Positions 9,118 through 44,929 of a stretch of DNA of 64,000 nt are shown here, piece after piece (position 1 is the stretch's first letter; each line of letters begins with the position of its first letter). The notes under the pieces are model-generated. The model was not told the origin of the DNA. It made no database searches and was given only the letters and a program-made list of their open reading frames with translations. The stretch is from a virus (lineage: Duplodnaviria; Caudoviricetes). The DNA is taken from IMG/VR virus record IMGVR_UViG_3300042892_002922, positions 192,001 to 256,000 of that record. One strand, written 5' to 3'. The position numbers and the translations under genes are program-made.

Positions 9118-9408
9118 ATGGTAACATACACAATTACACTATCAGATGCGGAAGACAAGGCATTAGGATACGTCGCATTATCACAACAAGATTGGATGGA
9201 AAATGCTGTTAAAGCAAGATGTGAAAACGCAATTCAAGAAATCTTCCAATTAGAGGTTGAAAGAAAGATTGCTGCGGGTGAATCTATAACTGGAACTAAA
9301 GAAGAAATTGTTTTAGCTGCTAATATTAGAAGTGCGGCTGAAAGAGCATCTGACCCAACACCAGACATTTATGGAATAACAAATATAATACCAGATCCTT
9401 TCGTATAA
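9118..9408 (+). CDS. Small phage protein accompanying C1q-like heads
   Basis: YTITLSDAEDKAL..V...QDWMENAV..R...A..EI resembles small proteins next to C1q-type genes in myophages; TAATG overlap with next gene. Confidence 0.5.
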   Translation: MVTYTITLSDAEDKALGYVALSQQDWMENAVKARCENAIQEIFQLEVERKIAAGESITGTKEEIVLAANIRSAAERASDPTPDIYGITNIIPDPFV

Positions 9409-9980: not shown

Positions 9981-9983
9981 ATT

Positions 9984-10565: not shown

Positions 10566-10592
10566 ATAACCAATTTTATTCTATTTATAGTT

Positions 10593-11267: not shown

Positions 11268-11277
11268 AATTAAAAAT

Positions 11278-11607
11278 ATGTTAGAAAATAGAAGATGGTT
11301 AGTAATACCAACAAGCACAACTGGTTCAATAAATTTTGACCAAGTAAAAGAGTCAAGTATCGATAGTTTAAGGTTATCTGTCGATGGGTCTAAGACGTTT
11401 GTTAAATACGATGTGATGGTTGTTGAAACAACCACAACTGAAACTCAAATAAACGCAGAAACTGGCGATGAAATGACAATTACAACTGAAGCTGGAATTT
11501 ATGGTAGACCAGACATATACTCAGAAGAATATCCTGAGTATACTCATGAAGCAATTTTAGAATTATTAAGCACAACTGAATGGACAACGCCAATAGAAAA
11601 TAAATGA
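11278..11607 (+). CDS. Small acidic phage protein accompanying LamG heads
   Basis: FDQV.ESS..SLRLSVDGSKTFVKY...YTHEAILELLST.EWT pattern; position between LamG genes. Confidence 0.5.
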   Translation: MLENRRWLVIPTSTTGSINFDQVKESSIDSLRLSVDGSKTFVKYDVMVVETTTTETQINAETGDEMTITTEAGIYGRPDIYSEEYPEYTHEAILELLSTTEWTTPIENK

Positions 11608-28761: not shown

Positions 28762-29279
28762 CCTACAAAGACGAATTAACTAGAGCCATGACATATATTG
28801 GAGAACAAGAAAACAGTGTCTTCATGGGGCAATCTGTGGCTTTCCCTGGTACATCATTATACAGTACATTAACAAATGTATCTAAAGAAAAATTAATCGA
28901 ATTTCCAGTACTAGAAGAAACACAAACAGGGGTTGCGTTAGGTATGAGTTTAACCGATAAATGTGTAGTGTCAATTTACCCAAGATGGGACTTTTTAATA
29001 TTGGCAACTAATCAATTAGTAAACCACATAGATAAGTTTGAATTGATGACAGGACACGCACCACACGTAATCATTAGAGTTGGTGTTGGTAGCACAAACC
29101 CATTGGACCCAGGACATCAACATAAAGCAGATTATACCGAAGCATTTAAATTATTAATGCAACAAGTAGAGGTTGTAAATTTAACTGAAGCAAATCAAGT
29201 TTTTGATACGTATAAAAGGGCGTACGATAATAAAAAACCAATAATCATTTGTGAATACCCCGACCTATACAATGCATAG
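28758..29279 (+). CDS. TPP-dependent enzyme, E1-beta/transketolase pyrimidine-binding-like subunit (no C-terminal domain)
   Basis: EFPVLEETQTGVALGMS; YPRWDFL..ATNQLVNHIDK; LDPGHQH. Confidence 0.85.
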   Translation: MTYKDELTRAMTYIGEQENSVFMGQSVAFPGTSLYSTLTNVSKEKLIEFPVLEETQTGVALGMSLTDKCVVSIYPRWDFLILATNQLVNHIDKFELMTGHAPHVIIRVGVGSTNPLDPGHQHKADYTEAFKLLMQQVEVVNLTEANQVFDTYKRAYDNKKPIIICEYPDLYNA

Positions 29280-30633
29280 ACCAACTTTTGGATACGATAT
29301 TATAACACCCAGAGGTGAATTACCTAATGGACTTGATCCTGCTAGGTTTAAATTCATCTATGACCAAGTTAAATGGAATTTTAGGGAGATATTATATTTT
29401 AATAGTTTAGACACTAATCCAGTTTATTTAGCTGGGCACTTTGACCACAAAATAATTAAAAAAAGTGTTTATGAAATCCACAAAAATAGACAACAAGGTA
29501 TAAACGAAGTATGGTATTATACAATAGAACCATTTGGTAATTTCAGAGGATTTTTGGGTCTGTTAAATGGTAAAGTGGATGATGAATTCACTATACATAT
29601 GTCAGATATTGCAAAACACGAAATAATCTCAGGGAACGGTCGTTTATTGATCAATTACACTATTGATGGGGGTATCGATGTTAATAGAAACACAATAACT
29701 AAATTGTTTGAACTTTTAAAAGCAACAAACATCCCATTTCGTAAGATTTACTTTCTTATGAATGATATTAATTTTAAAGGTAATCTTGAAAAAATTAGTG
29801 GGATTCAAAATTTAAATGTGTTTCATTTTAATTTAGCGTTGATGCAAAAGTCAAATGAAATATATAATACATTATTACATGAAGGTCGTTATTTCTTTTG
29901 GAAAAATAATACTTCATTTGTTTCCAAAGTTACACGTATTGAAGATTTCGAATTAAATTTAACCAAAAAGGATAAGAAATTTTTGATGTTAAATCGTAAC
30001 TGGAAGATGCATAGATTGGAGTTAATTAAAACACTCAGGGATAACGGTTTATTGGAAGATTCATTGGTATCGTGGGATAAGAATATGGTTAGCCACAGCG
30101 AAGCAAGAGCATTTATTGAAAAATATGACGATACCGAGTTAATGGAAATCATGAAGAACGAATCATCGATTTTAGATTATCCAGATATCGCAAATGTTCA
30201 TGGTTATGGTTTTGAAACAAAAGAAATATACTTACAAAGTTTTTTTCATATTGTTGGTGAAACTATTTATTATCAAGATGACACACCATCTGGATACGTT
30301 TCAGAAAAACCGTTTAAACCAATGGCACACTTTCAACCATTTATATTTGCGGGACCGGCCGGTGTTATTAAACATTTGAATGAATTAGGTTTTAAATCTT
30401 TTCATCCATATATTGATGAAACATATGATTCGATTACGGATGATAATGAGAGAATGAAAGCAATTAGTAACGAAGTCATTCGTCTAGGTAAACTAACTAA
30501 AGATGAGATGATTGATATTACGATGAAATTAAAAAGTGTTTTATACCACAACTATAGGATGCTATTTAATATTGGGTCACCAAAGCTCCAAGACGATAAT
30601 AGAAATAACGTAATTGAATTTTTAAATAAGTAA
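29272..30633 (+). CDS. FxxLNR/SEK family paralog 2 (start refined from 29251)
   Basis: FLMLNR; VSEKPFKP..FQPFIFAG..LNELGFKSFHPYIDETYD. Confidence 0.45.
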   Translation: MHRPTFGYDIITPRGELPNGLDPARFKFIYDQVKWNFREILYFNSLDTNPVYLAGHFDHKIIKKSVYEIHKNRQQGINEVWYYTIEPFGNFRGFLGLLNGKVDDEFTIHMSDIAKHEIISGNGRLLINYTIDGGIDVNRNTITKLFELLKATNIPFRKIYFLMNDINFKGNLEKISGIQNLNVFHFNLALMQKSNEIYNTLLHEGRYFFWKNNTSFVSKVTRIEDFELNLTKKDKKFLMLNRNWKMHRLELIKTLRDNGLLEDSLVSWDKNMVSHSEARAFIEKYDDTELMEIMKNESSILDYPDIANVHGYGFETKEIYLQSFFHIVGETIYYQDDTPSGYVSEKPFKPMAHFQPFIFAGPAGVIKHLNELGFKSFHPYIDETYDSITDDNERMKAISNEVIRLGKLTKDEMIDITMKLKSVLYHNYRMLFNIGSPKLQDDNRNNVIEFLNK

Positions 30634-32436: not shown

Positions 32437-33558
32437 TTGGAAAACAAGGAAATATTAAAAGATTACGTTTGCTTAATGCCATTCTTATCCACCGACGTTC
32501 AGCAAGCATCACAATTCGTTTGTTGCCCATCTTGGTGCTTTAAAAGTTTAAGAGTAGATGAGAATGGCGAAGAAGAAGATTGGGCATCTTACTTTGACAC
32601 TAGCGCAGACGTAATGAGGAACTGGACATCAACGCCAGCACATGACATTAGAAAATCAATGGTTGATGGTTCATACAGACATTGCAATCATGTAGTATGT
32701 CCAAGATTAAATCAATTAATCAATGGTAGTGAGACCACGCCATATATGTTTATGAAGAAGGAAGAATTTCAAAAAACCTTTAACATATATAATGAGGACG
32801 ATTTAAAAAAGTTTGACACGCCACCAGAAGAAATATTGTTTGGGTTTGATAGAAGTTGCAATCTTAAATGTCCGAGCTGTAGGGTAAACTTAATACCAAA
32901 TGACAATGTCGAATCTGAGGATTATAAAAATAAATTACATCTACTAAACTCAATCGAGAAGAATTTTGCTAGTAATTTAAAAAGAATAATGATAACCGGT
33001 AGTGGTGATCCGTTCTATTCTAAAATCTATCGCGATTACTTAATAAATTTTGACAGTAGTAAGTATCCCAAGTTAGAAGCGTTACAGATTATAACCAATG
33101 GTAACCTATTAAATGAAAAAATGTGGAACTCAATGAAAGCAACTCCACACATTAAAATCATTGAGATTAGTATTGACGCCGGAACTAAAGACACATATGA
33201 GAACAAAACAAGGTTAAATGGTAAATGGGATGTGTTAATGGAAAATCTACGTTTTTTAAGTACCCAGAATCACATTATTGAGGAATTTGTGTTATCAATG
33301 GTGGTTAGTAAACACAATTATAAAGAAATGTATACGTTCTATGAATTGATAACTGACATATTTAAAAATTCAAATTTTAAATGGGGACTATCAATCAACT
33401 ACAGACAATTGGTTGACTGGGGCACATTTTCAAAAGAAACGTTAGAAGAATTACAGGTCTTTAACACAGAACACCCTGAATATCAAGATTTTATGTCTGA
33501 ATTAAAAAAGATACACAACCAACCGTTTGTTAATCATAATTTCAACCATCTTCTATAG
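32437..33558 (+). CDS. Radical SAM protein with N-terminal SPASM-like Cys motifs (TTG start)
   Basis: YVCLMPF..VCCPSW; CNHVVCP; DRSCNLKCPSCR; ITGSGDPF; N-terminus aligns with paralog 41496, supporting TTG start. Confidence 0.85.
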   Translation: MENKEILKDYVCLMPFLSTDVQQASQFVCCPSWCFKSLRVDENGEEEDWASYFDTSADVMRNWTSTPAHDIRKSMVDGSYRHCNHVVCPRLNQLINGSETTPYMFMKKEEFQKTFNIYNEDDLKKFDTPPEEILFGFDRSCNLKCPSCRVNLIPNDNVESEDYKNKLHLLNSIEKNFASNLKRIMITGSGDPFYSKIYRDYLINFDSSKYPKLEALQIITNGNLLNEKMWNSMKATPHIKIIEISIDAGTKDTYENKTRLNGKWDVLMENLRFLSTQNHIIEEFVLSMVVSKHNYKEMYTFYELITDIFKNSNFKWGLSINYRQLVDWGTFSKETLEELQVFNTEHPEYQDFMSELKKIHNQPFVNHNFNHLL

Positions 33559-33590
33559 GTTTTTTGACTTTTTTTAGTTATATTAGTAAT

Positions 33591-34025
33591 ATGATATACT
33601 GGTTAACAGGCCAACCCGGCGCAGGAAAAACAACCTTAGCAAAATACTTAGTGGAATACTTTCCGAAAGATGAGGTTACTCACATCGATGGGGATGACTT
33701 AAGGGACATCTTTAAAAACAAGGACTATTCCATAACAGGTAGAAGATTAAACATCCAAAGAGCACAATACATTGCACAATTTATGCATAGTAAGGGACAT
33801 AATGTTATTGTGTCCTTAGTTTCACCATATAGAGACCAAAGAGAAGAATTTAAATTTAGTACATCGGTTGTCGAGATTTATGTACATACCACAGAAGATA
33901 GAGGTAGAAACCAATTCCATGTTGAGGAATATGAACCACCATTAGAAAATTTTATAGACATAGATACAACAATAAAAAACGAAACAGATTCGTATTTTGA
34001 ACTATTAAAAAAATTATCATTATGA
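33591..34025 (+). CDS. cysC: Adenylyl-sulfate (APS) kinase (start refined from 33564)
   Basis: IYWLTGQPGAGKTT P-loop; IDGDDLR; VIVSLVSPY...R; VEIYV. Confidence 0.8.
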   Translation: MIYWLTGQPGAGKTTLAKYLVEYFPKDEVTHIDGDDLRDIFKNKDYSITGRRLNIQRAQYIAQFMHSKGHNVIVSLVSPYRDQREEFKFSTSVVEIYVHTTEDRGRNQFHVEEYEPPLENFIDIDTTIKNETDSYFELLKKLSL

Positions 34026-34537
34026 TGACAAATGGTATTATCATTGACAATTTTTTAGACAATGTTGATGAAATAAGAGAGGAAGCGTTGTTATTAGATT
34101 ATACTAAATCATTACCTGAAAGTGAAGGTTGGAAAGGGTTTAGGTGTTTAAATGGAAACATGTTGACACTTGATTTACATGAAAAGATTAAAGAAAAGTT
34201 AGTTGAAACTAATATAAAATTTGATAATTGTGATATGAGGTGTTTTTTTCATTATACATTGGAAGAACATAATGTAGGTAAAAAAAACACACATCGTGAT
34301 TATGGTTTTGATTATGCTGGGGTTTTATACCTAGCACCAAACCCACAAAAAAATTCAGGTACGTCTTTTTATAATGATTTAGGTGAAGAAACCGGTTACT
34401 TGGAAAACGTTTATAATAGATTAGTAATTTATCCAGCGAATGAGTTACACTCTTTAAAAGAATCTTTTGGTAACGATATTAATAATGGTAGATTAACTTT
34501 CACGTTTTTTTGTAAATTAAAAAATAACAATATATGA
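34022..34537 (+). CDS. 2OG-Fe(II) oxygenase-like protein
   Basis: IIIDNFLDN; HRD; GVLYL..P..NSGTSFY; YNRLVIYP...H; RLT. Confidence 0.7.
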   Translation: MMTNGIIIDNFLDNVDEIREEALLLDYTKSLPESEGWKGFRCLNGNMLTLDLHEKIKEKLVETNIKFDNCDMRCFFHYTLEEHNVGKKNTHRDYGFDYAGVLYLAPNPQKNSGTSFYNDLGEETGYLENVYNRLVIYPANELHSLKESFGNDINNGRLTFTFFCKLKNNNI

Positions 34538-34914
34538 GTAAGAAATATGCAATGTACATCGGTAGGTGGCAAAATTGGCATAAAGGTCACGAATGGTTGA
34601 TCCGTCAACAAATGGACCAAGGTAAGAACATATGGGTAGCTATTAGGGATGTTGAAGTTGACGAGAACAACCCTAAAACAGCTCAAGAGGTTTTTCAAAT
34701 GTTAATCCAGGAGCCCTTTTTTAACGAGAATTTTGATAAGATTTTACTATCAATTATCCCAGATATCGAATCGGTTAATTACGGTAGAGGTGTTGGTTAC
34801 GATGTAATTTATCATGAGCCACCGGCGGATGTTGCGGTAATAAGTGGAACTGCGATTAGAACTGGACATATGACCGCTGATGGTTCAATAAAATATGACC
34901 AAACAAAAGGATAA
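34534..34914 (+). CDS. HIGH-family (cytidylyltransferase-like) nucleotidyltransferase
   Basis: YIGRWQNWHKGH (HxGH); ISGTAIR C-terminal motif. Confidence 0.75.
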   Translation: MSKKYAMYIGRWQNWHKGHEWLIRQQMDQGKNIWVAIRDVEVDENNPKTAQEVFQMLIQEPFFNENFDKILLSIIPDIESVNYGRGVGYDVIYHEPPADVAVISGTAIRTGHMTADGSIKYDQTKG

Positions 34915-35129
34915 TGATTGTAGAACGTAAACGACATATTGCGAAAACAATATCCTATCGCATTATAAGCACTATAATAGGTTTCCTTATAATGTGGTGG
35001 GTTAGTGGATCAATTAAGATTGGCGCGACCTTTGGTGTGGCTGAATTGGTGTACAAACCTATTCAATATTACCTACACGAAAGGATTTGGTATAGATGGA
35101 TAAAGTTCGGGGTAAAAGATAAAAAATAA
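34914..35129 (+). CDS. DUF2061-like small membrane protein
   Basis: RHIAKTISYRIIST...YYLHERIW. Confidence 0.75.
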   Translation: MIVERKRHIAKTISYRIISTIIGFLIMWWVSGSIKIGATFGVAELVYKPIQYYLHERIWYRWIKFGVKDKK

Positions 35130-35138
35130 GTATTTATA
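35129..35138 (+). promoter_or_regulatory. AGTATTTATA motif (putative late promoter) inside the enzyme block
   Basis: Identical to motif upstream of structural gene 738; 15 nt upstream of ATG 35154. Confidence 0.45.
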
Positions 35139-35153
35139 TATAAATTAGAAAAT

Positions 35154-36641
35154 ATGAGAACAGTATTGATAGGATCAGATTTTATGTACGATAAGGATGG
35201 TAATTTAAGACCCATCGAAATAAACACTGCGGTTGGTTGGGATGGTCCCGAAAAAGTGGAAGACGATGCAGATTGTTTGGATTTAACAAGTTTATATCAA
35301 TTTGTTGAGGATAATAATTTCCAAACGATACATTATGTTGGTGATATTGGTCCATTACACGTGACATTAATGACACATTATAGCGGAAGTTCTGTTACAT
35401 ATGAATTTCATGGGGTTGGAGCTACTTCCATTACAGTTCCATACATAGAAGATACTGAAACGACTTTAATTATTAGGAGTGCATATGACACAACAGCACT
35501 AGTGGATGACACATATTGTAAGGATAAAATAGAGTTCATGAATCTAATTAAAGATTCTTCTTTTGGCTCCCAATTTGCGTACATTGACGAAAATAACACA
35601 TTGGTGTCAAATATCACATCTATAAATGATAACGGCGAACACCCTAATTTTATTTTAAAATCTAGATTTCCAGGTTATGACAAGTTAATTTATCCAAAAT
35701 TTTTTAAAGTTACAACTCAATCTGAATTAGACACTATAATAGCAAATAATGTTACAAGTGAGTATTTTTTAATGGAGTACCTATGTAACGTCAATAAACT
35801 ATGGGAAGGGCATTTAACGGTTATAAGAAGTTTAAACATTTTAGTCCCACCAAATTTAGAATCAATTCAAATTGGCCAATATACAAAATTGAATCAAAAT
35901 ATGTTACTAGATAATGTGACATATGATTCAATCACATTTGAAGTATATTCAGATTTCAAAGAGAGTTATAGTACAAACCCACCTACCGGTTTTCAACCTA
36001 AATTATTGAATACTGATATGGTAGAAATGGCAGATGGGACATTAAAAACTGCATTGGATTTACAAATTGGGGACGTTATTAAAACAATTGAAATACCAAA
36101 TGAAAAGGGAACTAGTATAGATAGTTACGTATCCTCCGAATTTGGGCTTACGTACGATACGTTGGTAAGTGATGCAATATATACAACTAATGTCGTAACC
36201 AAAAAACAAAAAGTAAACACCTTAACTTTTATAAATGAATTAACATTTGAAGATGCTAGTACCTGGGAAGATACTATGGGCTCAAAGTATTTGATAGACA
36301 GAGAAGGTGTGGTTATGTTTAAATCATTATGGGGGATATTTCCAGGAGATGTGGTTATATTATTAGATACTACTGATGATAATATAAATTTTGTAAGAAA
36401 AACAGTTACATCAAATATTCAAGTTAAGAGAGTGTTCTCTGGTTGGTTTATTTCAGTTGATACCGCTATGTTATTTTTAACTAAAACAGCCGGGTCAACC
36501 AATAACGAATCATATGTTTCAATTGAACATAACCTTATATCTTGTCCCAATTGGACATGTACAAACGTTTGCTGGTCCGTCTGTCCATCATGTCCGAAGT
36601 ATATGTCTTGTCAATCTAATTACTGTTTTCCAGTATGTTAA
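35154..36641 (+). CDS. Circularly permuted ATP-grasp-like domain + degenerate Hint domain + C-terminal 8-Cys peptide
   Basis: N-terminal SDFMYDKDGNLRPIEINT (D..ExN), FILKSR, YFLMEYL; residues 283-460 KLLNTDMVEMADG.LK...DLQIGD...YVSIEHN; tail LISCPNWTCTNVCWSVCPSCPKYMSCQSNYCFPVC. Confidence 0.6.
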   Translation: MRTVLIGSDFMYDKDGNLRPIEINTAVGWDGPEKVEDDADCLDLTSLYQFVEDNNFQTIHYVGDIGPLHVTLMTHYSGSSVTYEFHGVGATSITVPYIEDTETTLIIRSAYDTTALVDDTYCKDKIEFMNLIKDSSFGSQFAYIDENNTLVSNITSINDNGEHPNFILKSRFPGYDKLIYPKFFKVTTQSELDTIIANNVTSEYFLMEYLCNVNKLWEGHLTVIRSLNILVPPNLESIQIGQYTKLNQNMLLDNVTYDSITFEVYSDFKESYSTNPPTGFQPKLLNTDMVEMADGTLKTALDLQIGDVIKTIEIPNEKGTSIDSYVSSEFGLTYDTLVSDAIYTTNVVTKKQKVNTLTFINELTFEDASTWEDTMGSKYLIDREGVVMFKSLWGIFPGDVVILLDTTDDNINFVRKTVTSNIQVKRVFSGWFISVDTAMLFLTKTAGSTNNESYVSIEHNLISCPNWTCTNVCWSVCPSCPKYMSCQSNYCFPVC

Positions 36642-36670
36642 TAACCTTCTTAAATAAATTTAAATAAAAA

Positions 36671-36760
36671 ATGGCAACAATTATATCAAATACAGACATC
36701 AATACTTTAAACACCACAATTACAACAATAGGTAGTTTAATTGTAACAGCAAACAGTTAG
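36671..36760 (+). CDS. 29-aa Thr/Ile/Asn-rich peptide, not in ORF track (MATIISNTDINTLNTTITTIGSLIVTANS)
   Basis: ATG after A-rich leader taaataaaaa, TAG at 36758-36760; fills a gap in an otherwise gap-free operon. Confidence 0.6.
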   Translation: MATIISNTDINTLNTTITTIGSLIVTANS

Positions 36761-36783
36761 TATAAAATCTAATAAGTTATTTT

Positions 36784-37317
36784 ATGATACATTTCATACC
36801 AAATATTCTTACTAAGGATGAGTGTGAATACTTAACGAATCAATTTGATTTCGAAAGAAAATATCAAATCTCGGTGGATAATGAATATACTGGCACCAAT
36901 ATATCATATGGGTTTGCCCCTTCATTTGCGTTTAATACCTATTTAAATAAATTAAAATCAAAAGTGTTAGAATATAACAATAATTTTGATGATTTATTCA
37001 ATGTAAACACATTTGTTAGGGAATATATGAACACCTCAATGTTAAAAAAACATTTAGATAGAAAAGACATTAGTGTTACTATGTCTATATGTTTAGAATC
37101 CACAATAAATAAAGAATGGCCGTTATGTGCGGAAATCGGAAATAAGGAATATTGTTTCAACACAAATATTGGTGACGGTATTTTATTATTTGATGCGGAT
37201 AAAATCACACATTGGAGGGAACCCTTAATATGTCTGGAGAAAGAAAGAGTTGTCCAATTTTTTTTACATTGGAAACCTTCTGATTACGTCGCAAAAAAAA
37301 CAAAATCATTATTATAA
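36784..37317 (+). CDS. 2OG-Fe(II) oxygenase-like; ends KKTKSLL
   Basis: LKKHLDR; ISVTMSI; GDGILLF...HWREP. Confidence 0.75.
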   Translation: MIHFIPNILTKDECEYLTNQFDFERKYQISVDNEYTGTNISYGFAPSFAFNTYLNKLKSKVLEYNNNFDDLFNVNTFVREYMNTSMLKKHLDRKDISVTMSICLESTINKEWPLCAEIGNKEYCFNTNIGDGILLFDADKITHWREPLICLEKERVVQFFLHWKPSDYVAKKTKSLL

Positions 37318-37328
37318 AAAAATAAATT

Positions 37329-37913
37329 ATGCCATTTACATATACAATAGAGTCAACCTTTTTAACAAAAGAAGAATGTGATTTAATATTAGATTTTTCA
37401 TTAAAAGAATTAAAATTAGTACCATCGGAAATTCTTACCAATTACACCGATGGTGGCGACGTTAATACCGATATTAGAAAATCAAATCAAGTATTTTACC
37501 CCTATTATAAAAAATTTCCATTTTTATTAGAAAAAATGAGTAAATTATTAAATCAACATATTTTTGTTAAAGGGTTCGATTTAGATTTTAAAGAAAGTCA
37601 ATTTCAGTTTACTGAGTATCATCCAGGCGGACATTTTGGCTGGCATAGAGATGCTCATGGAAAAAAAATAACGGATTATGACAGGTATTGTTCATTAGTG
37701 ATACAACTAAATGATGAGTATGGAGAGGGTGATTTACAAATAAAAGATGATCAGAATGGGACCCTAACAGTTGAAAAGGGTACAGGAAATTTGATATTAT
37801 TTTTATCAAATATTGAACATAGAGTAGTGCCAGTAAAAAGTGGGATTAGATATACACTAGTTAATTGGGTGAAATTAAAACAAAAAAAAGATTATAAAAA
37901 AACACTTTTATAG
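37329..37913 (+). CDS. 2OG-Fe(II) oxygenase (PKHD/prolyl-hydroxylase-like); ends YKKTLL
   Basis: QFTEYHPGGHFGWHRD; EGDLQI; HRVVPVKSGIRYTLVNW. Confidence 0.85.
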   Translation: MPFTYTIESTFLTKEECDLILDFSLKELKLVPSEILTNYTDGGDVNTDIRKSNQVFYPYYKKFPFLLEKMSKLLNQHIFVKGFDLDFKESQFQFTEYHPGGHFGWHRDAHGKKITDYDRYCSLVIQLNDEYGEGDLQIKDDQNGTLTVEKGTGNLILFLSNIEHRVVPVKSGIRYTLVNWVKLKQKKDYKKTLL

Positions 37914-37914
37914 T

Positions 37915-38232
37915 ATGAAAATAAATTTTAAAGAAATATTAAATGCGTGGTATAATGTTATAAATCACACACCAGAACAAAAGGAATTAGCAGATAAAAG
38001 ATTCGCAATATGTTTAGAATGCCCCTCTAAAATAGAAATTTTAAAATACAAGAAATGGCTTTTTAAATGTAAAGAATGTGGTTGCCCTTTAGGCGCAAAA
38101 GTTTACACTGAAACAACATATCTTACTAAAGACAAATCTTGTCCACTTGATAAATGGAAAGAAGTTGAAATGGAATTTATGAGTAAACATAGTGACACGA
38201 TTAAATATAAAACTAAAAAAACATTTCTTTAG
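37915..38232 (+). CDS. Small Cys-rich (putative metal-binding) protein; ends TKKTFL
   Basis: RFAICLECP; CKECGCPL.AK; CPLDKW. Confidence 0.6.
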   Translation: MKINFKEILNAWYNVINHTPEQKELADKRFAICLECPSKIEILKYKKWLFKCKECGCPLGAKVYTETTYLTKDKSCPLDKWKEVEMEFMSKHSDTIKYKTKKTFL

Positions 38233-38234
38233 TT

Positions 38235-38924
38235 ATGGGTTATTTAATAAACGATGACCTTTTATGGGTGATCACCCCTAAATGTGCTAGCGACTCAATA
38301 GAAACTGCATTATTAAACTCAAGTTTAAATTTAAAAAAATATAGCGAACACTTCGAACAACATACCCATATGCATATACCACTAAACGAGTGCTTAACTA
38401 AGTTTGGTAAAAAAGAAACAATATGTATCACTAGAGATTGGTTTGAAAAATGGTTAAGTTCATTAAATTTTATTTGGGATTATATAGAATTATATAGTGA
38501 ATATGAACCAGTATGTAAATGGGAGGACATCAATAATAATGTTATTTATGAGATATTTGATAGCGAATTTGTAAATAAACTTTACTCATTAAATCATACC
38601 TCTAATGAAGAATGTTTTTTGAAATTATTAAAAAGGAACACCGAAGATATTATAAACGTACCCAAAGAAATTTATGGAATAATAATAACTCTAATATCTG
38701 AACGCTATTGGAAAAGTAATGTAAAATGCACATATGAATTTGATATTAAAAAATTAGACGATTTTGTCAATTTCATTGAAAATAGGTTTGGTGAAAAATT
38801 AATAATAGAAAAGAAAAACGTATCTACAAAAAGACCAAATAAATTAATAGTAAATAATGAATTGAAATCTTTTGTTTGGGAAAAATTTGAAAAAATATTT
38901 GAAAAAAGAAATCAATTAATTTAA
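38235..38924 (+). CDS. Sulfotransferase-family protein; ends KRNQLI
   Basis: WVITPKCASDSI (5'-PSB-like); TRDWFEKWLSS (3'-PB-like). Confidence 0.65.
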   Translation: MGYLINDDLLWVITPKCASDSIETALLNSSLNLKKYSEHFEQHTHMHIPLNECLTKFGKKETICITRDWFEKWLSSLNFIWDYIELYSEYEPVCKWEDINNNVIYEIFDSEFVNKLYSLNHTSNEECFLKLLKRNTEDIINVPKEIYGIIITLISERYWKSNVKCTYEFDIKKLDDFVNFIENRFGEKLIIEKKNVSTKRPNKLIVNNELKSFVWEKFEKIFEKRNQLI

Positions 38925-38925
38925 T

Positions 38926-39594
38926 ATGGCAACTATTTGGACATTTGGGGATTCATTTACTTCTGGAGACGGGTGTGTAGAAAACCTAAGAATTAGAGAC
39001 GGTGATTTTAGATATTATAACGAATATAAAAAACTAGGCAGTGATATATGGCCTAATTTATTAGGTAAAACTTTAGGATATGACGTAAAAAATCTAGGAA
39101 AAAGCGGTGCAAGTAATGACTATATTTTAGATTCTATTATTGATAATTTTAACATGATAGAACCAAATGATGTGGTGATAATTGAAAAAACATTTTACCA
39201 AAGATTTGATATACCTAAATCAACGGGTGATGGGTTTCAAACAATTTATGCTGAAGGACTTTATCAACTTTCTATTGATTTAAAAATGGAAAGATATTTT
39301 TGTGAAGATAAATTAGAAATTGAAACGGTATTAAATTATGGTGTTTTATTTTCCGACAATAAATTATTTAAAGAAAGACAAGATAAACGATTTGAATTTA
39401 TACAAGCACAATTAAATAATAAAACAGATAAAATATTAATATGGGATGTTTTAGATTTTTTAGACGGTAAAATTGAAACAATAGGTCAACACACTGAGGG
39501 TAATATAAAAGATTATCATTTTAGTTTTAATGGTCATAAAAGATTTAGCGAATTTCTATATAAAAAATTATATATTAAACCCTCATTAGTTTAA
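38926..39594 (+). CDS. SGNH/GDSL-like protein; ends KPSLV
   Basis: TFGDSFT; NLGKSGASND; DYHFSFNGH. Confidence 0.7.
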   Translation: MATIWTFGDSFTSGDGCVENLRIRDGDFRYYNEYKKLGSDIWPNLLGKTLGYDVKNLGKSGASNDYILDSIIDNFNMIEPNDVVIIEKTFYQRFDIPKSTGDGFQTIYAEGLYQLSIDLKMERYFCEDKLEIETVLNYGVLFSDNKLFKERQDKRFEFIQAQLNNKTDKILIWDVLDFLDGKIETIGQHTEGNIKDYHFSFNGHKRFSEFLYKKLYIKPSLV

Positions 39595-40326
39595 ATGTTA
39601 GTCGATAAAAAATTTATTTTTATAAGTTTACCAAGATGCGCATCAACATCATTTATGATTAGGTGTGTTAAAAACAAAATACCAATAGAGCATTTCAACT
39701 CAAACCATGATAATCAGTTGATTAAAATCAATGAATGGGAAAAAATGGGTAATGAAGAATTGGCGGATAGATTAGTACATGCGCACGAACCATTACATAT
39801 GTTACAAGAAAAATTTGGGACGAACAACCAAATTATTTCAATAAAACGAAATAAGTACGATAGATTTTTATCTTTATGGAAACACATCATAGACGAATTA
39901 CACAGAATTAACAAACTTGATATTGCTGACATCTTTTCAAAATTAACAACTAATGATCTGTTTGTTAATATTAAACCAAATGACATTTATAATTCGGAAA
40001 ATAGAATTAAAGTTATTGATAATTTTTTATCTAGGTTAGAAATTTCAAAAGAAGAATCTTACACTAAAAATATGTTAGATATATTGTTTATGCCAGTAGT
40101 TGAACTTACAAATAACGACCCAAATATTATCTGGTTTGATATTAACAGTTTGAGAGATTTAGAAAATTGGGTGTCAAAAAAACTAAATAGAGATTTTAAA
40201 ATGGAAAAAATAAATTCAAGTAAACATTTTAATTCAGTAATGGAGAACGATGATAATTTTAAACAGAAATATGATAATCTTTATAAAGAATTTGACCAAA
40301 GAAAAACAACTAAAACATTATTGTAA
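39595..40326 (+). CDS. Sulfotransferase-family protein; ends TTKTLL
   Basis: FIFISLPRCASTSF; KRNKYDRFLSLW. Confidence 0.65.
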   Translation: MLVDKKFIFISLPRCASTSFMIRCVKNKIPIEHFNSNHDNQLIKINEWEKMGNEELADRLVHAHEPLHMLQEKFGTNNQIISIKRNKYDRFLSLWKHIIDELHRINKLDIADIFSKLTTNDLFVNIKPNDIYNSENRIKVIDNFLSRLEISKEESYTKNMLDILFMPVVELTNNDPNIIWFDINSLRDLENWVSKKLNRDFKMEKINSSKHFNSVMENDDNFKQKYDNLYKEFDQRKTTKTLL

Positions 40327-41495
40327 TGGAAATTCAATTTTGGTATAGCGATATTTTACCAAATACAAATATTAGAAATTCAATCGAAAAAATAGATAGT
40401 GACATCTTATTTAAAAATATCCACACCGATAAGGTAGATGTTACAAAATTAAATTTTTTATTTTTTTTGTTAGAAACTGAATGGACTAATTCCGATATCC
40501 CAAACATAGCGTATACTCATTCTAGTGAATTTATTGAATTACTAATTAAGTTACAATCTGAAAATTTCTATTTTATGTGTAATAATTCTGGGGAAGCCGA
40601 ACTTTGGGTGGATAATTTATCCTTGAATTTTTTTAATTTGTTAAAAAAAAATAAAATTGATTTTAACAGATTAATAATTGTAAATAACGATTCATCTAAA
40701 ATTGGTATAGGTAAAACAAAATATGGGGATTTTATATTAAACACCTGTTTTTTTCCTAATTTCTTTTTATCTACCTATGAGCATTTAAAGTCATATGTAA
40801 CTGAATTAAACCCTAACACCATACCTGATAAAAAATTCTTATGTTTAAATAGAAGAATGGGTTATGAAAAATATAAATTAATCGAGAGGTTATATCATAT
40901 GGGGTTGTTAAATGACACCAGATTTTCTTGGGTAAAAAATAGCACGAATAAAAATCTGTTAAATAAAGAATTACTTAATGAATTAAACATAGATGTTGAT
41001 AACTTTAACCCTATTCAGTTAGAAGATGATGTAATGTATGGTGCTGATTTAGTTATGGAAAAGTATCTTTACACCATAAACCCCAAATGGTATTATAAAA
41101 GTAAAGTTAATATTATATTGGAAACAATGCTATACCCAAATTCAATTCATCTGACAGAAAAAACCTGGAAAGCAATTTATTTAGGTGTCCCGTTTGTTAT
41201 ATATTCACCATCTAAACACTATCTTAAAACCTTAAGGGATATGGGATTCAAGACATTTAATTCTGTGATTAATGAGGATTATGATGAGATGCTAGGTAAA
41301 GATAAAATAACACAAGTTATAAAAAGCGCTGAAGAACTGGCTAGTATCTATGACACCCCCAAAGTATTAGATATATGTAGATTTAACCAAGAATTATATT
41401 TTAATTTTCAACACAGAAAAAAAATATATAATGAGTTTTTTTTAAATAAAATTTGTGATGTTAAAAACTTAACAATTCCTAAAACATTAATTTAA
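40326..41495 (+). CDS. FxxLNR/SEK family paralog 3; ends PKTLI
   Basis: FLCLNRR; LTEKTWKAI..GVPFV..LKTLRDMGFKTF..INEDYD. Confidence 0.45.
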   Translation: MEIQFWYSDILPNTNIRNSIEKIDSDILFKNIHTDKVDVTKLNFLFFLLETEWTNSDIPNIAYTHSSEFIELLIKLQSENFYFMCNNSGEAELWVDNLSLNFFNLLKKNKIDFNRLIIVNNDSSKIGIGKTKYGDFILNTCFFPNFFLSTYEHLKSYVTELNPNTIPDKKFLCLNRRMGYEKYKLIERLYHMGLLNDTRFSWVKNSTNKNLLNKELLNELNIDVDNFNPIQLEDDVMYGADLVMEKYLYTINPKWYYKSKVNIILETMLYPNSIHLTEKTWKAIYLGVPFVIYSPSKHYLKTLRDMGFKTFNSVINEDYDEMLGKDKITQVIKSAEELASIYDTPKVLDICRFNQELYFNFQHRKKIYNEFFLNKICDVKNLTIPKTLI

Positions 41496-42545
41496 ATGGG
41501 TAATAAAATTGATTTAAAAAATTATACGTGTAGTGTGCCATTTACATCATTAGAAATACATAACAATGTTTGTTTTGTGTGCTGTCCATCCTGGTTACCA
41601 AACAAAGTAGAACTTAGTGAAATTCCATTAAAAGATGTTTATAATAGCGAACCAATTATTGATATAAGAAACTCGATATTAGATGGTTCATTTAGATATT
41701 GTAGTCAAGAGCTTTGTCCTTATTTAAGTAAATTAGTGAAGTATGGTGCGGAATCTGGGCCAGTCACTTTAAAATCAAATTCAAATGTTAATAGCCCTAT
41801 TGTAAAAAATAACGCACCAGATTATTTGATGATGAATTTTGATAGAACATGTAACTACAAATGTCCATCATGTAGAGTTGATTTAATAGTTGAAAATAGT
41901 GAGGGTATAAAACGTGTAGAAAAAACAATAGAGGAGATTGATAATCACTACTCGAAATATGTTAAAACCCTATATATTACTGGATCAGGGGATCCGTTTG
42001 TTTCTGTCGGATTCAGAAATTATCTAAGAAATTTTAACCCTAAAAAATACCCAAACTTAAATTCCATACACCTACACACAAATGCGTCTATGTGGAATAA
42101 AGAAATGTGGGATAGTATGCCAAACATACACGGATATGTCCACTCTTGTGAAATTAGCATCGACGCTGGTACAAAAGACACCTATGAAAATAAAACCAGG
42201 TTGGGTGGTAAATGGGATAATTTAATTGATAATTTAAAATTCATAAGCACTCTACCAATTTCAGTTAAAACATCATTTGTGGTTCAAGATTCCAATTACA
42301 TGGAAATGGGTATTTTTTACAACTTAATGTACTCAATATTTGGTAAAAGAGTAAATGTGTTTTTTGGTAAGATAACTAATTGGGGGACATTTTCAGAAGG
42401 TGAATTTAAATTAAAACAAGTATGGGATACGGAACATCCAGAACATGAGTTATTTAAAAAAGAGTTTAATAAAGTATGGAAAAATGAAAACCTTTTTCAT
42501 AATTTATATGAGTTTATTGACAACACAAATAAAACTTTAATATAG
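41496..42545 (+). CDS. Radical SAM protein, paralog of 32437; ends NKTLI
   Basis: YTCSVPF..VCCPSW; CSQELCP; DRTCNYKCPSCR; ITGSGDPF. Confidence 0.85.
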   Translation: MGNKIDLKNYTCSVPFTSLEIHNNVCFVCCPSWLPNKVELSEIPLKDVYNSEPIIDIRNSILDGSFRYCSQELCPYLSKLVKYGAESGPVTLKSNSNVNSPIVKNNAPDYLMMNFDRTCNYKCPSCRVDLIVENSEGIKRVEKTIEEIDNHYSKYVKTLYITGSGDPFVSVGFRNYLRNFNPKKYPNLNSIHLHTNASMWNKEMWDSMPNIHGYVHSCEISIDAGTKDTYENKTRLGGKWDNLIDNLKFISTLPISVKTSFVVQDSNYMEMGIFYNLMYSIFGKRVNVFFGKITNWGTFSEGEFKLKQVWDTEHPEHELFKKEFNKVWKNENLFHNLYEFIDNTNKTLI

Positions 42546-43106
42546 ATGAGAATTTTAATACTATCACATACAAGATGTGGTTCTACCACATTATGTAAAT
42601 GGATATCAAAAGAATTGAATTTTGAAGTAGATTATGATCATTACGATGCTAACACATTTAATTCAATTTTCATTAAAAATAATATAATAAAAAAAATTGT
42701 TATCGAAGAATACAATCCACCAAATGAAGTTATTGAAAAATTTGATAAAGTTATTTGTTTAAGTAGGGAAAATAATATTGACAGTGCCATAAGTTTTATT
42801 AATGCTGATAACAAAAGCAGGTGGCACGACATATATGAAATAACAAATGAGTGGATTGAAGATAATAAAAATAAAATAATAGAAACTGTTTACAAATATG
42901 AACAATTAAAAACCTTATTAAAAAATAAAGATTTATTTCAAATAACGTATGAAAATATGTATATTAATAAAATAGACGTTAATAGAGTTATTAGTTATTT
43001 AAACATTGAAAACCCAAAACATTTGGATATGCTTGATTATGATAAAAAATATAGAAAAGACACATATACTTTAACACATGATTTTAAGAGAAAAAATATC
43101 ATTTAG
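42546..43106 (+). CDS. Sulfotransferase-like (Stf0-type) protein; ends RKNII
   Basis: ILILSHTRCGSTTL; LSRENNIDSAIS; ITYENM. Confidence 0.6.
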   Translation: MRILILSHTRCGSTTLCKWISKELNFEVDYDHYDANTFNSIFIKNNIIKKIVIEEYNPPNEVIEKFDKVICLSRENNIDSAISFINADNKSRWHDIYEITNEWIEDNKNKIIETVYKYEQLKTLLKNKDLFQITYENMYINKIDVNRVISYLNIENPKHLDMLDYDKKYRKDTYTLTHDFKRKNII

Positions 43107-43608
43107 TAAAGATGAGTGTGATTACATAATAAATTTATCCAAAGAGTTGGATGAACTTAAACCATTTGGTTATGATGACAATGTTAATAAAGAAAAAATA
43201 ACAATTAGATATTTTGTTTGGGTTATCAATAGAAACAATAAAACCCAATGGATATTTGATAAAATTCAAACGTATTTTATAAATAAAACTAATATAAAGA
43301 TAAAAAAAGAATTAGATAAAATATATATACACAAATATGACACCGGCCAACAATTTGAAAAACATGCTGACACATATTATAAAACACAAATACACAATGT
43401 AGGGGTATGTTTAAACAATGATTATGATGGAGGTGAATTTGTTTTATATAATCCAGAAGAACAATTACCAAAAGAAACGGGTAACATATATACTTTCCCT
43501 AGTCAAAGAATACATGAAGTAAAAAAAATAATAAAGGGTGAAAGGTGGAGCATTATTGGATTTTTACATATTGATAATTTAGATTTCCCTAAAAAATCAC
43601 TAATATGA
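43078..43608 (+). CDS. 2OG-Fe(II) oxygenase; ends KKSLI
   Basis: FEKHAD; LNNDYDGGEF; HEVKKIIKGERWSII. Confidence 0.85.
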   Translation: MILREKISFSKDECDYIINLSKELDELKPFGYDDNVNKEKITIRYFVWVINRNNKTQWIFDKIQTYFINKTNIKIKKELDKIYIHKYDTGQQFEKHADTYYKTQIHNVGVCLNNDYDGGEFVLYNPEEQLPKETGNIYTFPSQRIHEVKKIIKGERWSIIGFLHIDNLDFPKKSLI

Positions 43609-44162
43609 AAATTGGAATAACAGGACATTCTAACGGAATTGGAAATGACATTTATTCAAATTTAATAAAAGAATATGATGTTATAGGATTTAGTAGAAGT
43701 AATGGTTTTGATATTAAAAATACGGATAAAATTATAGAACAATTGGATGATTGTGATATTTTTATAAACAACGCTTACGAAGGAAACTATCAAACAATAT
43801 TATTTGAATTAATTTTTGATAAATGGAAATTTTTACCAAAAACAATTATTAATATGAATAGCAGTTGTGTGTATCATTCATCCGATTGGTCGCCAGAATA
43901 TGCAAATAATAAAAAAGAGTTAAAAGAAGTATCTTTAAATGCGATTAGAAATAATAAAAATAAAAAAGTTAGGGTCATAAATTTATATCCATCCACCTTA
44001 TCAACTCATATGGGGTTTGAAAGTTTAAATAAATTAGATACTGAAAATCTTGCAAAAATTATAAATTGGTTAATAAAACAACCACAAGAAATAGAAATTA
44101 GAGAGATGAGTATATATTGTACAACATTGGAGAAAGAATTTAAAACAAATAAATTAATATGA
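43605..44162 (+). CDS. Short SDR/Rossmann oxidoreductase; ends TNKLI
   Basis: IGITGHSNGIG; FINNAY; YANNK (YxxxK). Confidence 0.75.
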   Translation: MKIGITGHSNGIGNDIYSNLIKEYDVIGFSRSNGFDIKNTDKIIEQLDDCDIFINNAYEGNYQTILFELIFDKWKFLPKTIINMNSSCVYHSSDWSPEYANNKKELKEVSLNAIRNNKNKKVRVINLYPSTLSTHMGFESLNKLDTENLAKIINWLIKQPQEIEIREMSIYCTTLEKEFKTNKLI

Positions 44163-44929
44163 AATCAATAAAATTTTGGAATAAAAGCGGATTCGATGTT
44201 GCAACTTATAAATGGAATTTATCAGAAAGACGTAATAAAACATTTAATGGCTCTGGTTCGGATGATAGTGAAACCAATACCTACACATATAATGAACTAG
44301 GATTCAGAGGTGATTCAATATACAAGGATGGTTTTAGAATTCTGTCTGTCGGTTGTTCACATACGGAAGGTGTGGGGGTAAATGACTGGGAAACTTGGCC
44401 GCATATATTTTCTAGGTTAATACCTAATGGTATTGATTTAAATGCTGGGTTTGGTGGTAGAAGTAATGATTACATTGCTAGGTGTATTGTGTCCTTAATT
44501 GACACCTTTAGACCCAATCTGGTTAATCTAATGTACACATACCCCTCAAGAAAAGAATACTACAAGTTTAATGGGGATTTAGAGCCCTTTCATATGACCC
44601 CCTGGGGATATTTCAAAGAAGATTCGGAAGGTGTTGATGAATACAAGGCAATCGCAAAGATAACCCATGATGAAAATGATTTGATTAATTGGTATAAAAA
44701 TCATTTATTAATAACCAATTTCCTATCACTAAGAAAAATCCCATATACTTGGAATGGTTCTTTTCTAATGGATGAAGTTATATCAGATAAACATCGTTTT
44801 GATGGTGACTATGGTAACTTCAGAGAGTTTTCCGTTGACGGTAAACATGCAACAGGAAAACACAATGAAGAATATGCCAAAAATTTATATGACTTCATTA
44901 AGAAAAACTTCCCAACATATATCCCTTAG
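44159..44929 (+). CDS. SGNH/GDSL-like protein
   Basis: YNELGFRG; VGCSHTEGVG; NAGFGGRSND; DGKHA. Confidence 0.65.
   Translation: MKSIKFWNKSGFDVATYKWNLSERRNKTFNGSGSDDSETNTYTYNELGFRGDSIYKDGFRILSVGCSHTEGVGVNDWETWPHIFSRLIPNGIDLNAGFGGRSNDYIARCIVSLIDTFRPNLVNLMYTYPSRKEYYKFNGDLEPFHMTPWGYFKEDSEGVDEYKAIAKITHDENDLINWYKNHLLITNFLSLRKIPYTWNGSFLMDEVISDKHRFDGDYGNFREFSVDGKHATGKHNEEYAKNLYDFIKKNFPTYIP

Follow-up and report, generated by a model that had tools for sequence, protein, structure and literature searches.

A conserved phage cassette with a predicted self-cleaving, ATP-grasp-like Hint protein and a C-terminal tag shared by the neighbouring enzymes

Positions 192,001 to 256,000 of the IMG/VR virus record IMGVR_UViG_3300042892_002922 (Caudoviricetes), a stretch of 64,000 nucleotides referred to here as the window, contain a run of genes in which a protein with a hypervariable, cysteine-rich C-terminus is followed by eleven proteins, enzymes among them, that end in nearly the same four residues. 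The question raised by this locus is whether the tagged enzymes act on the cysteine-rich peptide and what, in that case, the shared tag is for.

Anatomy and conservation of the cassette

The cassette is conserved within a clade of large, uncultured tailed phages with AT-rich genomes. All of the elements named in the initial annotation were found on the + strand at the coordinates given there and recur in over 100 related viral contigs, and the single co-directional run that it described (motif, precursor gene, 29-aa ORF and 11 tagged genes) has the same order here. The upstream genes, the motif and the first two ORFs of the run are as follows.

33564..34025, + strand: APS (adenylyl-sulfate) kinase, untagged (Pfam APS_kinase, E = 2.5e-17; NCBIfam adenylyl-sulfate kinase, E = 3e-19)
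34022..34537, + strand: DUF6445 protein, untagged (Pfam DUF6445, E = 1.9e-9)
34534..34914, + strand: small HxGH-type nucleotidyltransferase (NMNAT-like), 126 aa (NCBIfam NMN adenylyltransferase, E = 1.2e-7)
34914..35129, + strand: DUF2061 small membrane protein (Pfam DUF2061, E = 1.5e-15)
35130-35138, + strand: promoter-like motif GTATTTATA, 24 nt ahead of the precursor ATG at 35154
35154-36641, + strand: precursor ORF, 495 aa (ATP-grasp-like, then Hint/BIL, then hypervariable tail)
36671..36760, + strand: 29-aa ORF, conserved small partner (a 24–51 aa ORF in nearly all related loci)

As regards the PAPS module proposed upstream of the run, the APS kinase is clear, as is the DUF2061 protein, but the 126-aa protein is just NMNAT-like; its gene adjoins that of the APS kinase in relatives too, and it may act as a sulfate adenylyltransferase (sulfurylase). 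The putative late motif is indeed conserved: almost all related loci carry it 11–30 nt upstream of the precursor homologue, it also stands ahead of structural genes at 738, 3706 and 9118 of the window, and in a complete relative 62 of its 107 copies lie within the 70 nt ahead of a gene start, with terminase and fibre genes among the genes concerned. Judged by its positions, the TATTTATA motif appears to behave as a phage promoter that the cassette shares with terminase and fibre genes, and the cassette is probably expressed late. The 29-aa peptide gene is real and conserved; the type of small ORF co-varies with the type of precursor, and its homologues in distant relatives stand immediately ahead of the precursor gene. 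The tagged genes follow.

36784..37317, + strand: tagged protein 1, 177 aa, ends KSLL (no family match; 95% of orthologues tagged)
37329..37913, + strand: tagged protein 2, P4H-type 2OG-Fe(II) oxygenase, ends KKTLL after a variable linker (Pfam 2OG-FeII_Oxy_3, E = 1e-13)
37915..38232, + strand: tagged protein 3, 105 aa, Cys4 zinc-ribbon-like (DUF6171-like; weak Pfam DUF6171), ends KKTFL
38235..38924, + strand: tagged protein 4, sulfotransferase-like, ends RNQLI (Atlas feature search, Sulfotransfer_2 clusters, score 0.96–0.97)
38926..39594, + strand: tagged protein 5, SGNH/GDSL-like hydrolase, ends KPSLV (weak Pfam Lipase_GDSL_2, E = 5e-4)
39595..40326, + strand: tagged protein 6, sulfotransferase-like, ends TKTLL (paralogue of protein 4, same cluster)
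40326..41495, + strand: tagged protein 7, 389 aa, no function given, ends PKTLI (paralogue of the untagged 29251-30633, BLASTP E = 8e-13)
41496..42545, + strand: tagged protein 8, radical SAM (twitch type), ends NKTLI (Pfam Radical_SAM; NCBIfam twitch rSAM, E = 7e-14)
42546..43106, + strand: tagged protein 9, Stf0/NodH-like sulfotransferase, ends RKNII (Atlas sulfotransferase clusters, score 0.95–0.97; weak NodH and Stf0 PDB matches)
43078..43608, + strand: tagged protein 10, 2OG-Fe(II) oxygenase, ends KKSLI (Pfam 2OG-FeII_Oxy_3, E = 6e-11)
43605..44162, + strand: tagged protein 11, short-chain dehydrogenase-like, ends TNKLI (weak Pfam adh_short, E = 3e-5)
44159..44929, + strand: 256-aa protein at the end of the block, untagged here (TYIP end; 58% of orthologues tagged)

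The three sulfotransferase calls (38235, 39595 and 42546) come from Atlas Sulfotransfer_2, Sulfotransfer_3 and Stf0 clusters (score 0.95–0.97), the corresponding HMM matches being weak (NodH, E = 0.11; Stf0, E = 0.05). The reported duplication of enzyme families with and without the tag is real and is seen both in the radical SAM proteins, of which tagged protein 8 shares 38% identity with the untagged 32437-33558, and in the pair formed by 29251 and 40326. With its P4H-like 2OG oxygenases and sulfotransferase-like proteins, the tagged set leans to protein modification, and the additional tagged families of relatives include an Asp/Asn β-hydroxylase and SET domains. Sulfotransferases, SGNH hydrolases, short-chain dehydrogenases (SDRs) and radical SAM enzymes are just as typical of glycan tailoring.

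In a profiling sample of 35 radical-SAM-seeded loci, each of at least 18 kb, the ATP-grasp-Hint precursor gene is present in 35 of 35, and tagged genes occupy offsets +1 to +10 counted from it. The idea that the cassette is inherited as a unit is borne out in this sample but not in distant relatives, which keep only a core of precursor, small ORF and DUF6171-like protein, with the enzyme block absent. In these distant phages the homologue of protein 3 still trails the precursor, ends in NRLV or TILV, and is the sole tagged protein retained beside it.

The precursor and its hypervariable tail

The precursor family comprises at least 475 clusters at 50% identity; it is without a Pfam model, and cultured phages gave no match. 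The AF2 model of the window's protein (pLDDT 84.5) and the aligned relatives divide it into three parts.

35154..35999, + strand: residues 1–282, ATP-grasp-like ligase domain (Foldseek and invariant residues)
36000..36533, + strand: residues 283–460, Hint/BIL-type domain (Foldseek, AFDB and invariant His459-Asn460)
36534..36641, + strand: residues 461–495 and stop, hypervariable tail of 35 aa with 8 Cys and one Lys in a C-P-K motif

Residues 2–277 matched glutathione synthetase (1m0t, E = 1.4e-5) and YjfC (7uk6) in Foldseek; the ATP-grasp matches have E values of 1e-5 to 3e-4 but low TM scores of 0.24–0.34. D9, E22, N24, R108, K169 and R225 are invariant, and E22-x-N24, alongside D9, is a candidate for the acidic-x-Asn motif that binds Mg/ATP. 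Pfam returned nothing significant for this domain (RimK, E = 0.085, in two of 49 sequences), and the N-terminal part is described here as ATP-grasp-like on the basis of the low-TM structural matches and the conserved motifs.

For residues from about 280 to 460, Foldseek found BIL2 (6y75), a BIL domain (2lwy) and many inteins, with E of about 1e-6 and TM by target of 0.65–0.73; the wider set of Hint-fold matches (BIL, intein and Hedgehog structures) spans E values of 1e-6 to 1e-4 and TM by target of 0.6–0.73, and the AFDB matches are named 'Hint' and 'Pretoxin HINT'. His459 and Asn460 are invariant in 49 aligned sequences and present in the family representatives. The domain starts with P-K-L-L-(D/N)-T-D, without Cys or Ser at its N-terminus, and the +1 residue after it is Leu here and G, A, V, K, S and others elsewhere. 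A splicing intein is ruled out, since Cys, Ser and Thr are missing at position 1 and the +1 residue is widely variable. As judged from these residues, the domain is of the C-terminal-cleavage-only type: with the terminal His-Asn kept and no N-terminal nucleophile, the predicted cut is solely after Asn460, via Asn cyclisation, and would release the tail.

The identity of the tail is 0.24–0.44 where that of the Hint domain is 0.64–0.83, and its length across the family is 25–55 aa. The number of Cys residues is even in all 108 distinct tails, mostly six or eight; at least one Lys is present in every one of them, exactly one in 70%; and 26 of the 108 lack any Asp or Glu. Graspetides were considered and rejected, because the Asp/Glu needed for their side-chain macrocycles is missing from those 26 tails. 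No correlation was seen between enzyme complement and tail composition.

Other members of the family depart from this form. In some, a cargo of 1100–1667 aa replaces the peptide. In others, a second, Cys1-bearing Hint domain directly follows the peptide, which would, from its sequence, yield a C-terminal thioester; these peptides are without Lys, the protein ends in HN-K, and the ATP-grasp domain is retained. Tandem canonical Hint precursors without the Cys-rich tail also occur, with tagged SET, 2OG, radical SAM and sulfotransferase neighbours, and no other Cys-rich ORF was found near these loci. The tail therefore cannot serve as a universal substrate of the tagged enzymes.

The C-terminal tag and its possible roles

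The eleven tagged proteins reported after the 29-aa peptide were recovered in full: eleven consecutive genes (36784-44162) end in [KN]-[TSKNQ]-[LIF]-[LIV]-stop, compared with three of the 51 other genes of the window (Fisher p = 7e-10). The corresponding figures for a complete relative of 335 kb are 9/13 locus genes and 18/389 genes elsewhere (p = 4e-9). Gene families are bimodal, about 20 being tagged at 74–100% and the remainder at about 0%. In an alignment of protein 2, K-K-T-L is invariant after the variable linker. The tag is encoded with all four Thr codons, with TCN and AGT for Ser, with TTA, CTA, TTG and CTT for Leu, and with all three stop codons; in protein 9 it lies within a 29-nt overlap with the following gene. 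Synonymous heterozygosity in tag versus conserved body columns is 0.61–0.63 versus 0.56 for Thr, 0.2–0.55 versus 0.42 for Leu and 0.26–0.56 versus 0.43 for Ile. As synonymous sites are free to vary, selection acts on the tag at the amino-acid level.

The tagged enzymes may plausibly modify the released peptide, and the locus shows the generic arrangement of a RiPP cluster, a variable-core precursor adjoining tailoring enzymes. Our tentative reading, to which we give somewhat less than even weight, is that the tag is a docking motif that recruits the enzymes to the tethered tail in a RiPP-like cassette. The core consists of the precursor, predicted to process itself, the partner peptide of roughly 30 aa and the zinc-ribbon protein of roughly 100 aa, and the lineage of the window has acquired 8–13 tailoring enzymes in addition: P4H-like 2OG oxygenases, three sulfotransferase-like proteins beside PAPS-supply genes, a twitch radical SAM enzyme, an SGNH hydrolase and an SDR. 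The tag would be read by a candidate receptor within the cassette, most probably the precursor body; the docked enzymes would hydroxylate, sulfate and cross-link the tail while it is still tethered, and the Hint domain would free it after modification. Recognition would then be inverted relative to RiPPs, with the tag on the enzymes and the receptor on the substrate, and one C-terminal motif of four residues would direct about twenty unrelated enzyme families to a substrate protein that cleaves itself.

Alternatively, the tagged enzymes may tailor collagen-like or Ser/Thr-rich virion fibres or fibre glycan, the precursor gene being a neighbour with a separate function and the tag serving to assemble a metabolon or to time turnover by way of a host C-terminus reader (a PDZ-type protease or ClpX). 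The tag fits the PDZ class I ligand form, [ST]-x-hydrophobic-COOH, and its basic-then-aliphatic end resembles the MuA-type ClpX tag. A PDZ receptor (PF13180, PDZ_2) was not detected in the records of three related phages, of which two are complete, and the tag is almost identical across divergent precursor types, as expected of a conserved host receptor. The kinds of enzyme present would be at home in glycan or collagen tailoring, a glycan island and collagen-like fibre genes flank the cassette, and the tagged enzymes remain where the precursor has no tail. The bacterial neighbourhoods described by Iyer et al. (2010; PMC2938197), in which β-hydroxylases, sulfotransferases and PAPS synthetases are joined with tail-collar and collagen-like proteins, point the same way. 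However, the tag begins right after the precursor gene, with the upstream glycan enzymes and paralogues untagged; the precursor co-occurs in every profiled locus; and the ancestral tagged protein is the constant neighbour of the precursor in phages without the enzyme block. We regard this alternative as unlikely, though by no means far-fetched.

An ATP-driven ligation of protein to peptide appears improbable. In such a scheme, the ATP-grasp domain would activate the C-terminal carboxylate of the tags or of the tail and join it to the tail Lys or to the N-terminus that Hint cleavage exposes, giving protein–peptide conjugates or a cyclised, disulfide-rich, cyclotide-like peptide. The invariance of catalytic-type ATP-grasp residues, the ever-present and mostly single Lys, the flexible linkers that carry the tags and the best PDB match, a BIL domain of a ciliate BUBL conjugation locus, are all consistent with it, and the tails without acidic residues imply that any carboxylate partner must be a C-terminus. 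The pairing of would-be thioester-forming Cys1 Hint domains with Lys-free peptides and an HN-K end also fits, but these two-Hint variants keep the ATP-grasp domain, so that the two activations are not simple alternatives; moreover, the purpose of joining eleven enzymes to a peptide is not obvious, and some members carry very large cargos. If true, this would be ubiquitin-like or cyclotide-like chemistry of phage invention.

It is very improbable that the tag has no protein function and simply reflects a nucleic-acid signal at the junctions (translational coupling, a recombination site or AT-rich codon bias): the junctions resemble one another in DNA sequence (AAAACATTAATATAATG-like), stop codons touch or overlap the following start, and K, N, T, L and I all have A/T-rich codons, but synonymous tag sites vary as freely as elsewhere, Ser comes from unrelated codons, the stop-to-start spacing runs from -29 to +11 nt, closely coupled genes at other places in these AT-rich genomes are untagged, and the tag tracks gene family rather than junction.

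Comparison with known systems

As a docking or ligation handle, the tag would represent a previously unrecognised organisation of a multi-enzyme modification pathway. The precursor family suggests that abundant environmental phages produce diversifying, conotoxin-like peptides late in infection, which would be relevant to phage–host and phage–phage conflict. The parts might also be turned into tools: a scaffold for displaying peptides that release themselves, and a minimal tag for recruitment.

In T4-like cyanophages (Iyer et al., 2010; PMC2938197), tandem arrays likewise bring multiple P4H-like 2OG oxygenases together in a hyperplastic region, with about 30% identity; their homologues align at most to residue 181 of the 194 of protein 2, and the linker and tag are not shared.

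None of the known RiPP classes fits the cassette. In common with RiPP clusters, a hypervariable, Cys-rich, gene-encoded peptide lies near radical SAM, oxygenase and transferase genes and has built-in release. In contrast, the 'leader' here is a 460-aa ATP-grasp-Hint protein, release is predicted through Hint Asn cyclisation instead of a protease, and an RRE or leader-binding domain was not seen here, the shared recognition element lying on the enzyme C-termini.

The pre-toxin Hint domains of polymorphic toxins and bacterial intein-like (BIL) domains similarly precede a hypervariable C-terminal module, keep His-Asn and have a co-varying small gene adjacent, features that the precursor locus shares; a trafficking domain and a recognised toxin fold were not found in the precursor. 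An ATP-grasp-like enzyme stands here where the trafficking domain stands there, and the cargo is usually a disulfide-type peptide of 25–55 aa in a probably late phage operon with tailoring enzymes.

In the ciliate BUBL loci, where BIL domains flank a ubiquitin-like domain, BIL2 of BUBL1 is the best structural match of the precursor Hint domain, and some relatives resemble BUBL loci and engineered SICLOPPS in having an HN-ending Hint upstream and a Cys1-starting Hint downstream of the peptide; unlike BUBL loci, the ubiquitin-like domain is absent here and the window's protein has a single Hint.

Finally, encapsulin cargo-loading peptides, microcompartment encapsulation peptides and PTS1 are, as here, short terminal motifs common to unrelated enzymes of a single operon. 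No shell gene for encapsulin- or microcompartment-style loading was found, and, compared with these motifs and those of PDZ and ClpX, the tag of the cassette is four residues long and has a sequence of its own.

The tag and its distribution

The analysis concerns the following features of the window.

33564-34025, APS kinase gene
35154-36641, precursor of 495 aa, with an ATP-grasp-like domain, a Hint/BIL domain and a hypervariable Cys-rich tail
36671-36760, small ORF of 29 aa
36784-44162, eleven genes whose products carry the tag, a C-terminal four-residue motif [KN]-[TS]-[LIF]-[LIV]-COOH
37329-37913, tagged 2OG oxygenase
37915-38232, zinc-ribbon protein (tagged protein 3), 105 aa, Cys4, with a weak DUF6171 hit

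In gene order, the eleven products end in KSLL, KTLL, KTFL, NQLI, PSLV, KTLL, KTLI, KTLI, KNII, KSLI and NKLI. The run of eleven consecutive tagged proteins described in the initial annotation was borne out. The loose pattern is found in 11 of 11 cassette genes versus 3 of the 51 other genes of the window (p = 7e-10). In a complete 335,630-bp genome among the IMG/VR relatives (loci L111-L127), the 13 genes that follow the precursor homologue include 9 tagged ones, versus 18 of 389 elsewhere (p = 4e-9). The tag is therefore no product of genome-wide composition or translation.

Using the tagged radical SAM and the 495-aa protein as seeds, 110 loci were recovered from IMG/VR, on contigs of up to 335 kb; several are related or overlap on one contig, so that locus counts are not counts of independent events. 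The family statistics come from crude ORF prediction in the recovered loci (first ATG, minimum of 60 aa, overlaps filtered greedily), with protein families defined as BLAST single-linkage clusters. The families are bimodal: about 20 are tagged at 74-100% and all others at about 0%. The tagged families include the 2OG oxygenases, the radical SAM, two sulfotransferase-like families and the zinc-ribbon protein, as well as SGNH, SET, cupin and Asp/Asn beta-hydroxylase families, and orthologues show conservative substitutions with the tag retained. The tag is most frequent one to four genes after the precursor (offsets +1 to +4, about 80% tagged) and becomes rarer by +12. Of the radical-SAM-seeded loci, 35 are at least 18 kb long; each of them contains the precursor, and in most a trio of APS kinase, nucleotidyltransferase and DUF2061 genes lies upstream of it.

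A DNA- or RNA-level origin of the tag was rejected on the basis of the varied codons (all four for Thr; TCN and AGT for Ser; TTA, CTA, TTG and CTT for Leu; all three stops), a synonymous heterozygosity in tag columns equal to that in conserved gene-body columns, the variable linker of 8-10 residues that precedes an invariant K-K-T-L in the 2OG family, and the stop-to-next-start spacing in the tagged run, which varies between a 29-nt overlap and +11 nt. The alignment with cyanophage 2OG homologues ends at residue 181 of 194. The tag behaves like other short linear motifs, here carried on a free C-terminus. The RKNII tag of the gene at 42546-43106 is dual-coding, as it lies inside the 29-nt overlap with the start of the next gene (43078-43106).

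Tag 'dialects' were compared by lineage, and the sole feature beyond permutations was 'last residue = L' (1/500, with related loci that are non-independent). In L132, the locus of a more distant relative with 33% GC, the whole cassette lies at 9349-13695, and Phe and Met are commoner in the tags across its enzymes (KSFL, RNFI, IKLF, KTLF, KTLM, PKFI, RNFI and KSLI), which may represent a lineage-specific variant. The APS kinase family, comprising the window gene and its orthologues, has a conserved end of its own, K-K-L-x-[LI], in a register that differs from that of the tag (KLSL, KLTL, KLKI and KLNI).

The precursor and its tail

Neither Pfam nor PHROG gave a hit for the precursor, Pfam gave nothing significant for any of its 49 homologues, and a profile search of PDB sequences returned chance-level hits only. 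The structural model, built on the 49-sequence alignment, is confident (pLDDT 84.5). Residues 2-277 give a low-TM match to ATP-grasp enzymes, namely glutathione synthetase and YjfC-type enzymes, and the invariant residues of this first domain include D9, E22, N24, R108, K169 and R225. For residues ~280-460 the matches are to BIL domains, inteins and the Hint domains of Hedgehog proteins, with an invariant H459-N460 at the end of the domain. In inteins and BIL domains, established chemistry allows Asn to form a succinimide, which breaks the bond that follows it. Since the Hint domain of the precursor starts with P-K-L-L-(D/N)-T-D, without Cys or Ser, and the residue following Asn460 is variable among homologues, cleavage after Asn by succinimide formation should, by analogy, be its only reaction.

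Cys, Pro, Gly, Ser, Tyr and Trp are abundant in the hypervariable tail; where two precursors share 0.64-0.83 identity over the Hint domain, their tails share 0.24-0.44. Searched with a profile, a set of 1.84 billion representatives yielded at least 475 clusters of the precursor family, of which 217 reached E <= 1e-30. Short tails pooled from the family representatives and the loci gave 108 distinct tails, every one of which has an even number of Cys residues (six in 47, eight in 55) and at least one Lys (exactly one in 70%); Asp and Glu are absent from 26. Pairing of the Cys residues, in disulfides or at metal sites, is suggested by the even counts, and the obligatory Lys suggests a reactive or recognised residue. 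No pattern linked the enzyme complement to tail composition among the few independent loci.

In a subset of precursors (loci L062, L063, L065, L074-L076 and L080; family representatives P0026, P0031-P0033 and P0038), the first Hint domain is followed by one to three further canonical ones (Cys1 ... VHN). In some, the second, Cys-starting Hint domain directly follows the peptide and the protein ends in HN-K or HN-KK, an arrangement reminiscent of an intein inserted into the C-terminal end of the peptide; the five inter-Hint peptides contain 6-8 Cys and no Lys. In tandem-Hint variants, 0-7 residues separate the Hint domains. Other variants have cargos of 1100-1667 aa, a large C-terminal region with a faint BACON hit replacing the peptide after the His-Asn of the Hint domain (L128 150-5153, which is representative P0116; also P0108, P0111, P0126 and P0127). 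One such member lies directly upstream of a tail sheath gene.

Genomic setting and promoter-like motif

The GC content of the window is ~30% and falls to 25-29% over 36-44 kb; it carries genes for virion structural proteins and collagen-like tail fibres, together with a long series of sugar and tailoring genes that all point the same way. Among cultured phages, a near-identity DNA search with the window and protein searches with the radical SAM and the precursor gave no matches.

The small ORF is kept as an ORF of 24-51 aa in an unusual gap of 100-260 nt after the precursor, and its type varies with the type of precursor tail. In the window, this gap (36641-36784, 142 nt) is the sole sizeable one in the run and contains only the small ORF; no intrinsic terminator was found around the precursor, the gap included. 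In distant phages (~39% GC), a similar small ORF lies immediately upstream of the precursor, and even there the zinc-ribbon protein, ending in NRLV or TILV, follows it. The small ORF, the precursor and the zinc-ribbon protein therefore constitute the minimal ancient unit, and the tagged enzyme block was accreted in the low-GC lineage, being already complete in the 33% GC relative with Phe-richer tags. In all five distant contexts (L128-L132) the cassette comes just before the tail sheath gene, and so holds a constant position bordering the structural module.

In nearly all loci, RTATTTATA is found 11-30 nt upstream of the precursor start. The raw number of copies in the window equals the chance expectation, but five of the six + strand copies lie in gaps directly 5' of genes. 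These genes and the copies of the promoter-like motif TATTTATA are located as follows.

708, TATTTATA
738, virion structural gene downstream of RTATTTATA
3632, TATTTATA
3706, virion structural gene downstream of RTATTTATA
9092, TATTTATA
9118, gene downstream of two overlapping RTATTTATA copies
35130, TATTTATA
35154, precursor gene, downstream of RTATTTATA

TATTTATA acts as a promoter-like motif throughout the genome of the complete relative: of its 107 copies there, 62 lie within 70 nt upstream of a same-strand gene, including genes for the large terminase, fibres, baseplate-like proteins and a homing endonuclease. The putative late motif proposed earlier is conserved and precedes terminase and fibre genes; its late timing is inferred from the analogous promoters of T4-type phages.

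Possible roles of the cassette

The tagged proteins of the window comprise two P4H-type 2OG oxygenases, one twitch-type radical SAM, three sulfotransferase-like proteins (Atlas feature scores of 0.95-0.97, with weak HMM support), one SGNH-like, one SDR-like and two without assigned function; in relatives, a cupin, an Asp/Asn beta-hydroxylase and SET domains join the set, all of them tagged. As the initial annotation had proposed, enzyme families are duplicated with and without the tag. The untagged paralogues are located upstream, in the glycan island.

The best-supported reading is that the tag is a cassette-specific recognition motif that would tie the enzymes to the precursor module. It is weakened by relatives that lack the Cys-rich tail and keep the tagged enzymes. 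Complex prediction for the precursor and the tagged 2OG oxygenase, each with its own alignment, gave a median score of 0.29 against a mark of 0.32 in a run without controls and so speaks neither for nor against an interaction, and a PDZ_2 domain search of three related phage records found none. The main rival, in which fibres or glycan would be tailored and a host factor would read the tag, fits the enzyme types, the surrounding genes and the neighbourhoods described in PMC2938197. In a more radical and unlikely reading, the fused ligase would use the tags or the tail's own end as carboxylate substrates and join them to the obligatory Lys or the freed N-terminus.

In the literature searched, neither the ATP-grasp-Hint-Cys-tail architecture nor a C-terminal tag shared across an operon is described, though descriptions outside that literature may exist. 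In conclusion, if the tag serves as a recognition motif, the cassette would encode a RiPP-like pathway in which the address is carried by the enzymes.
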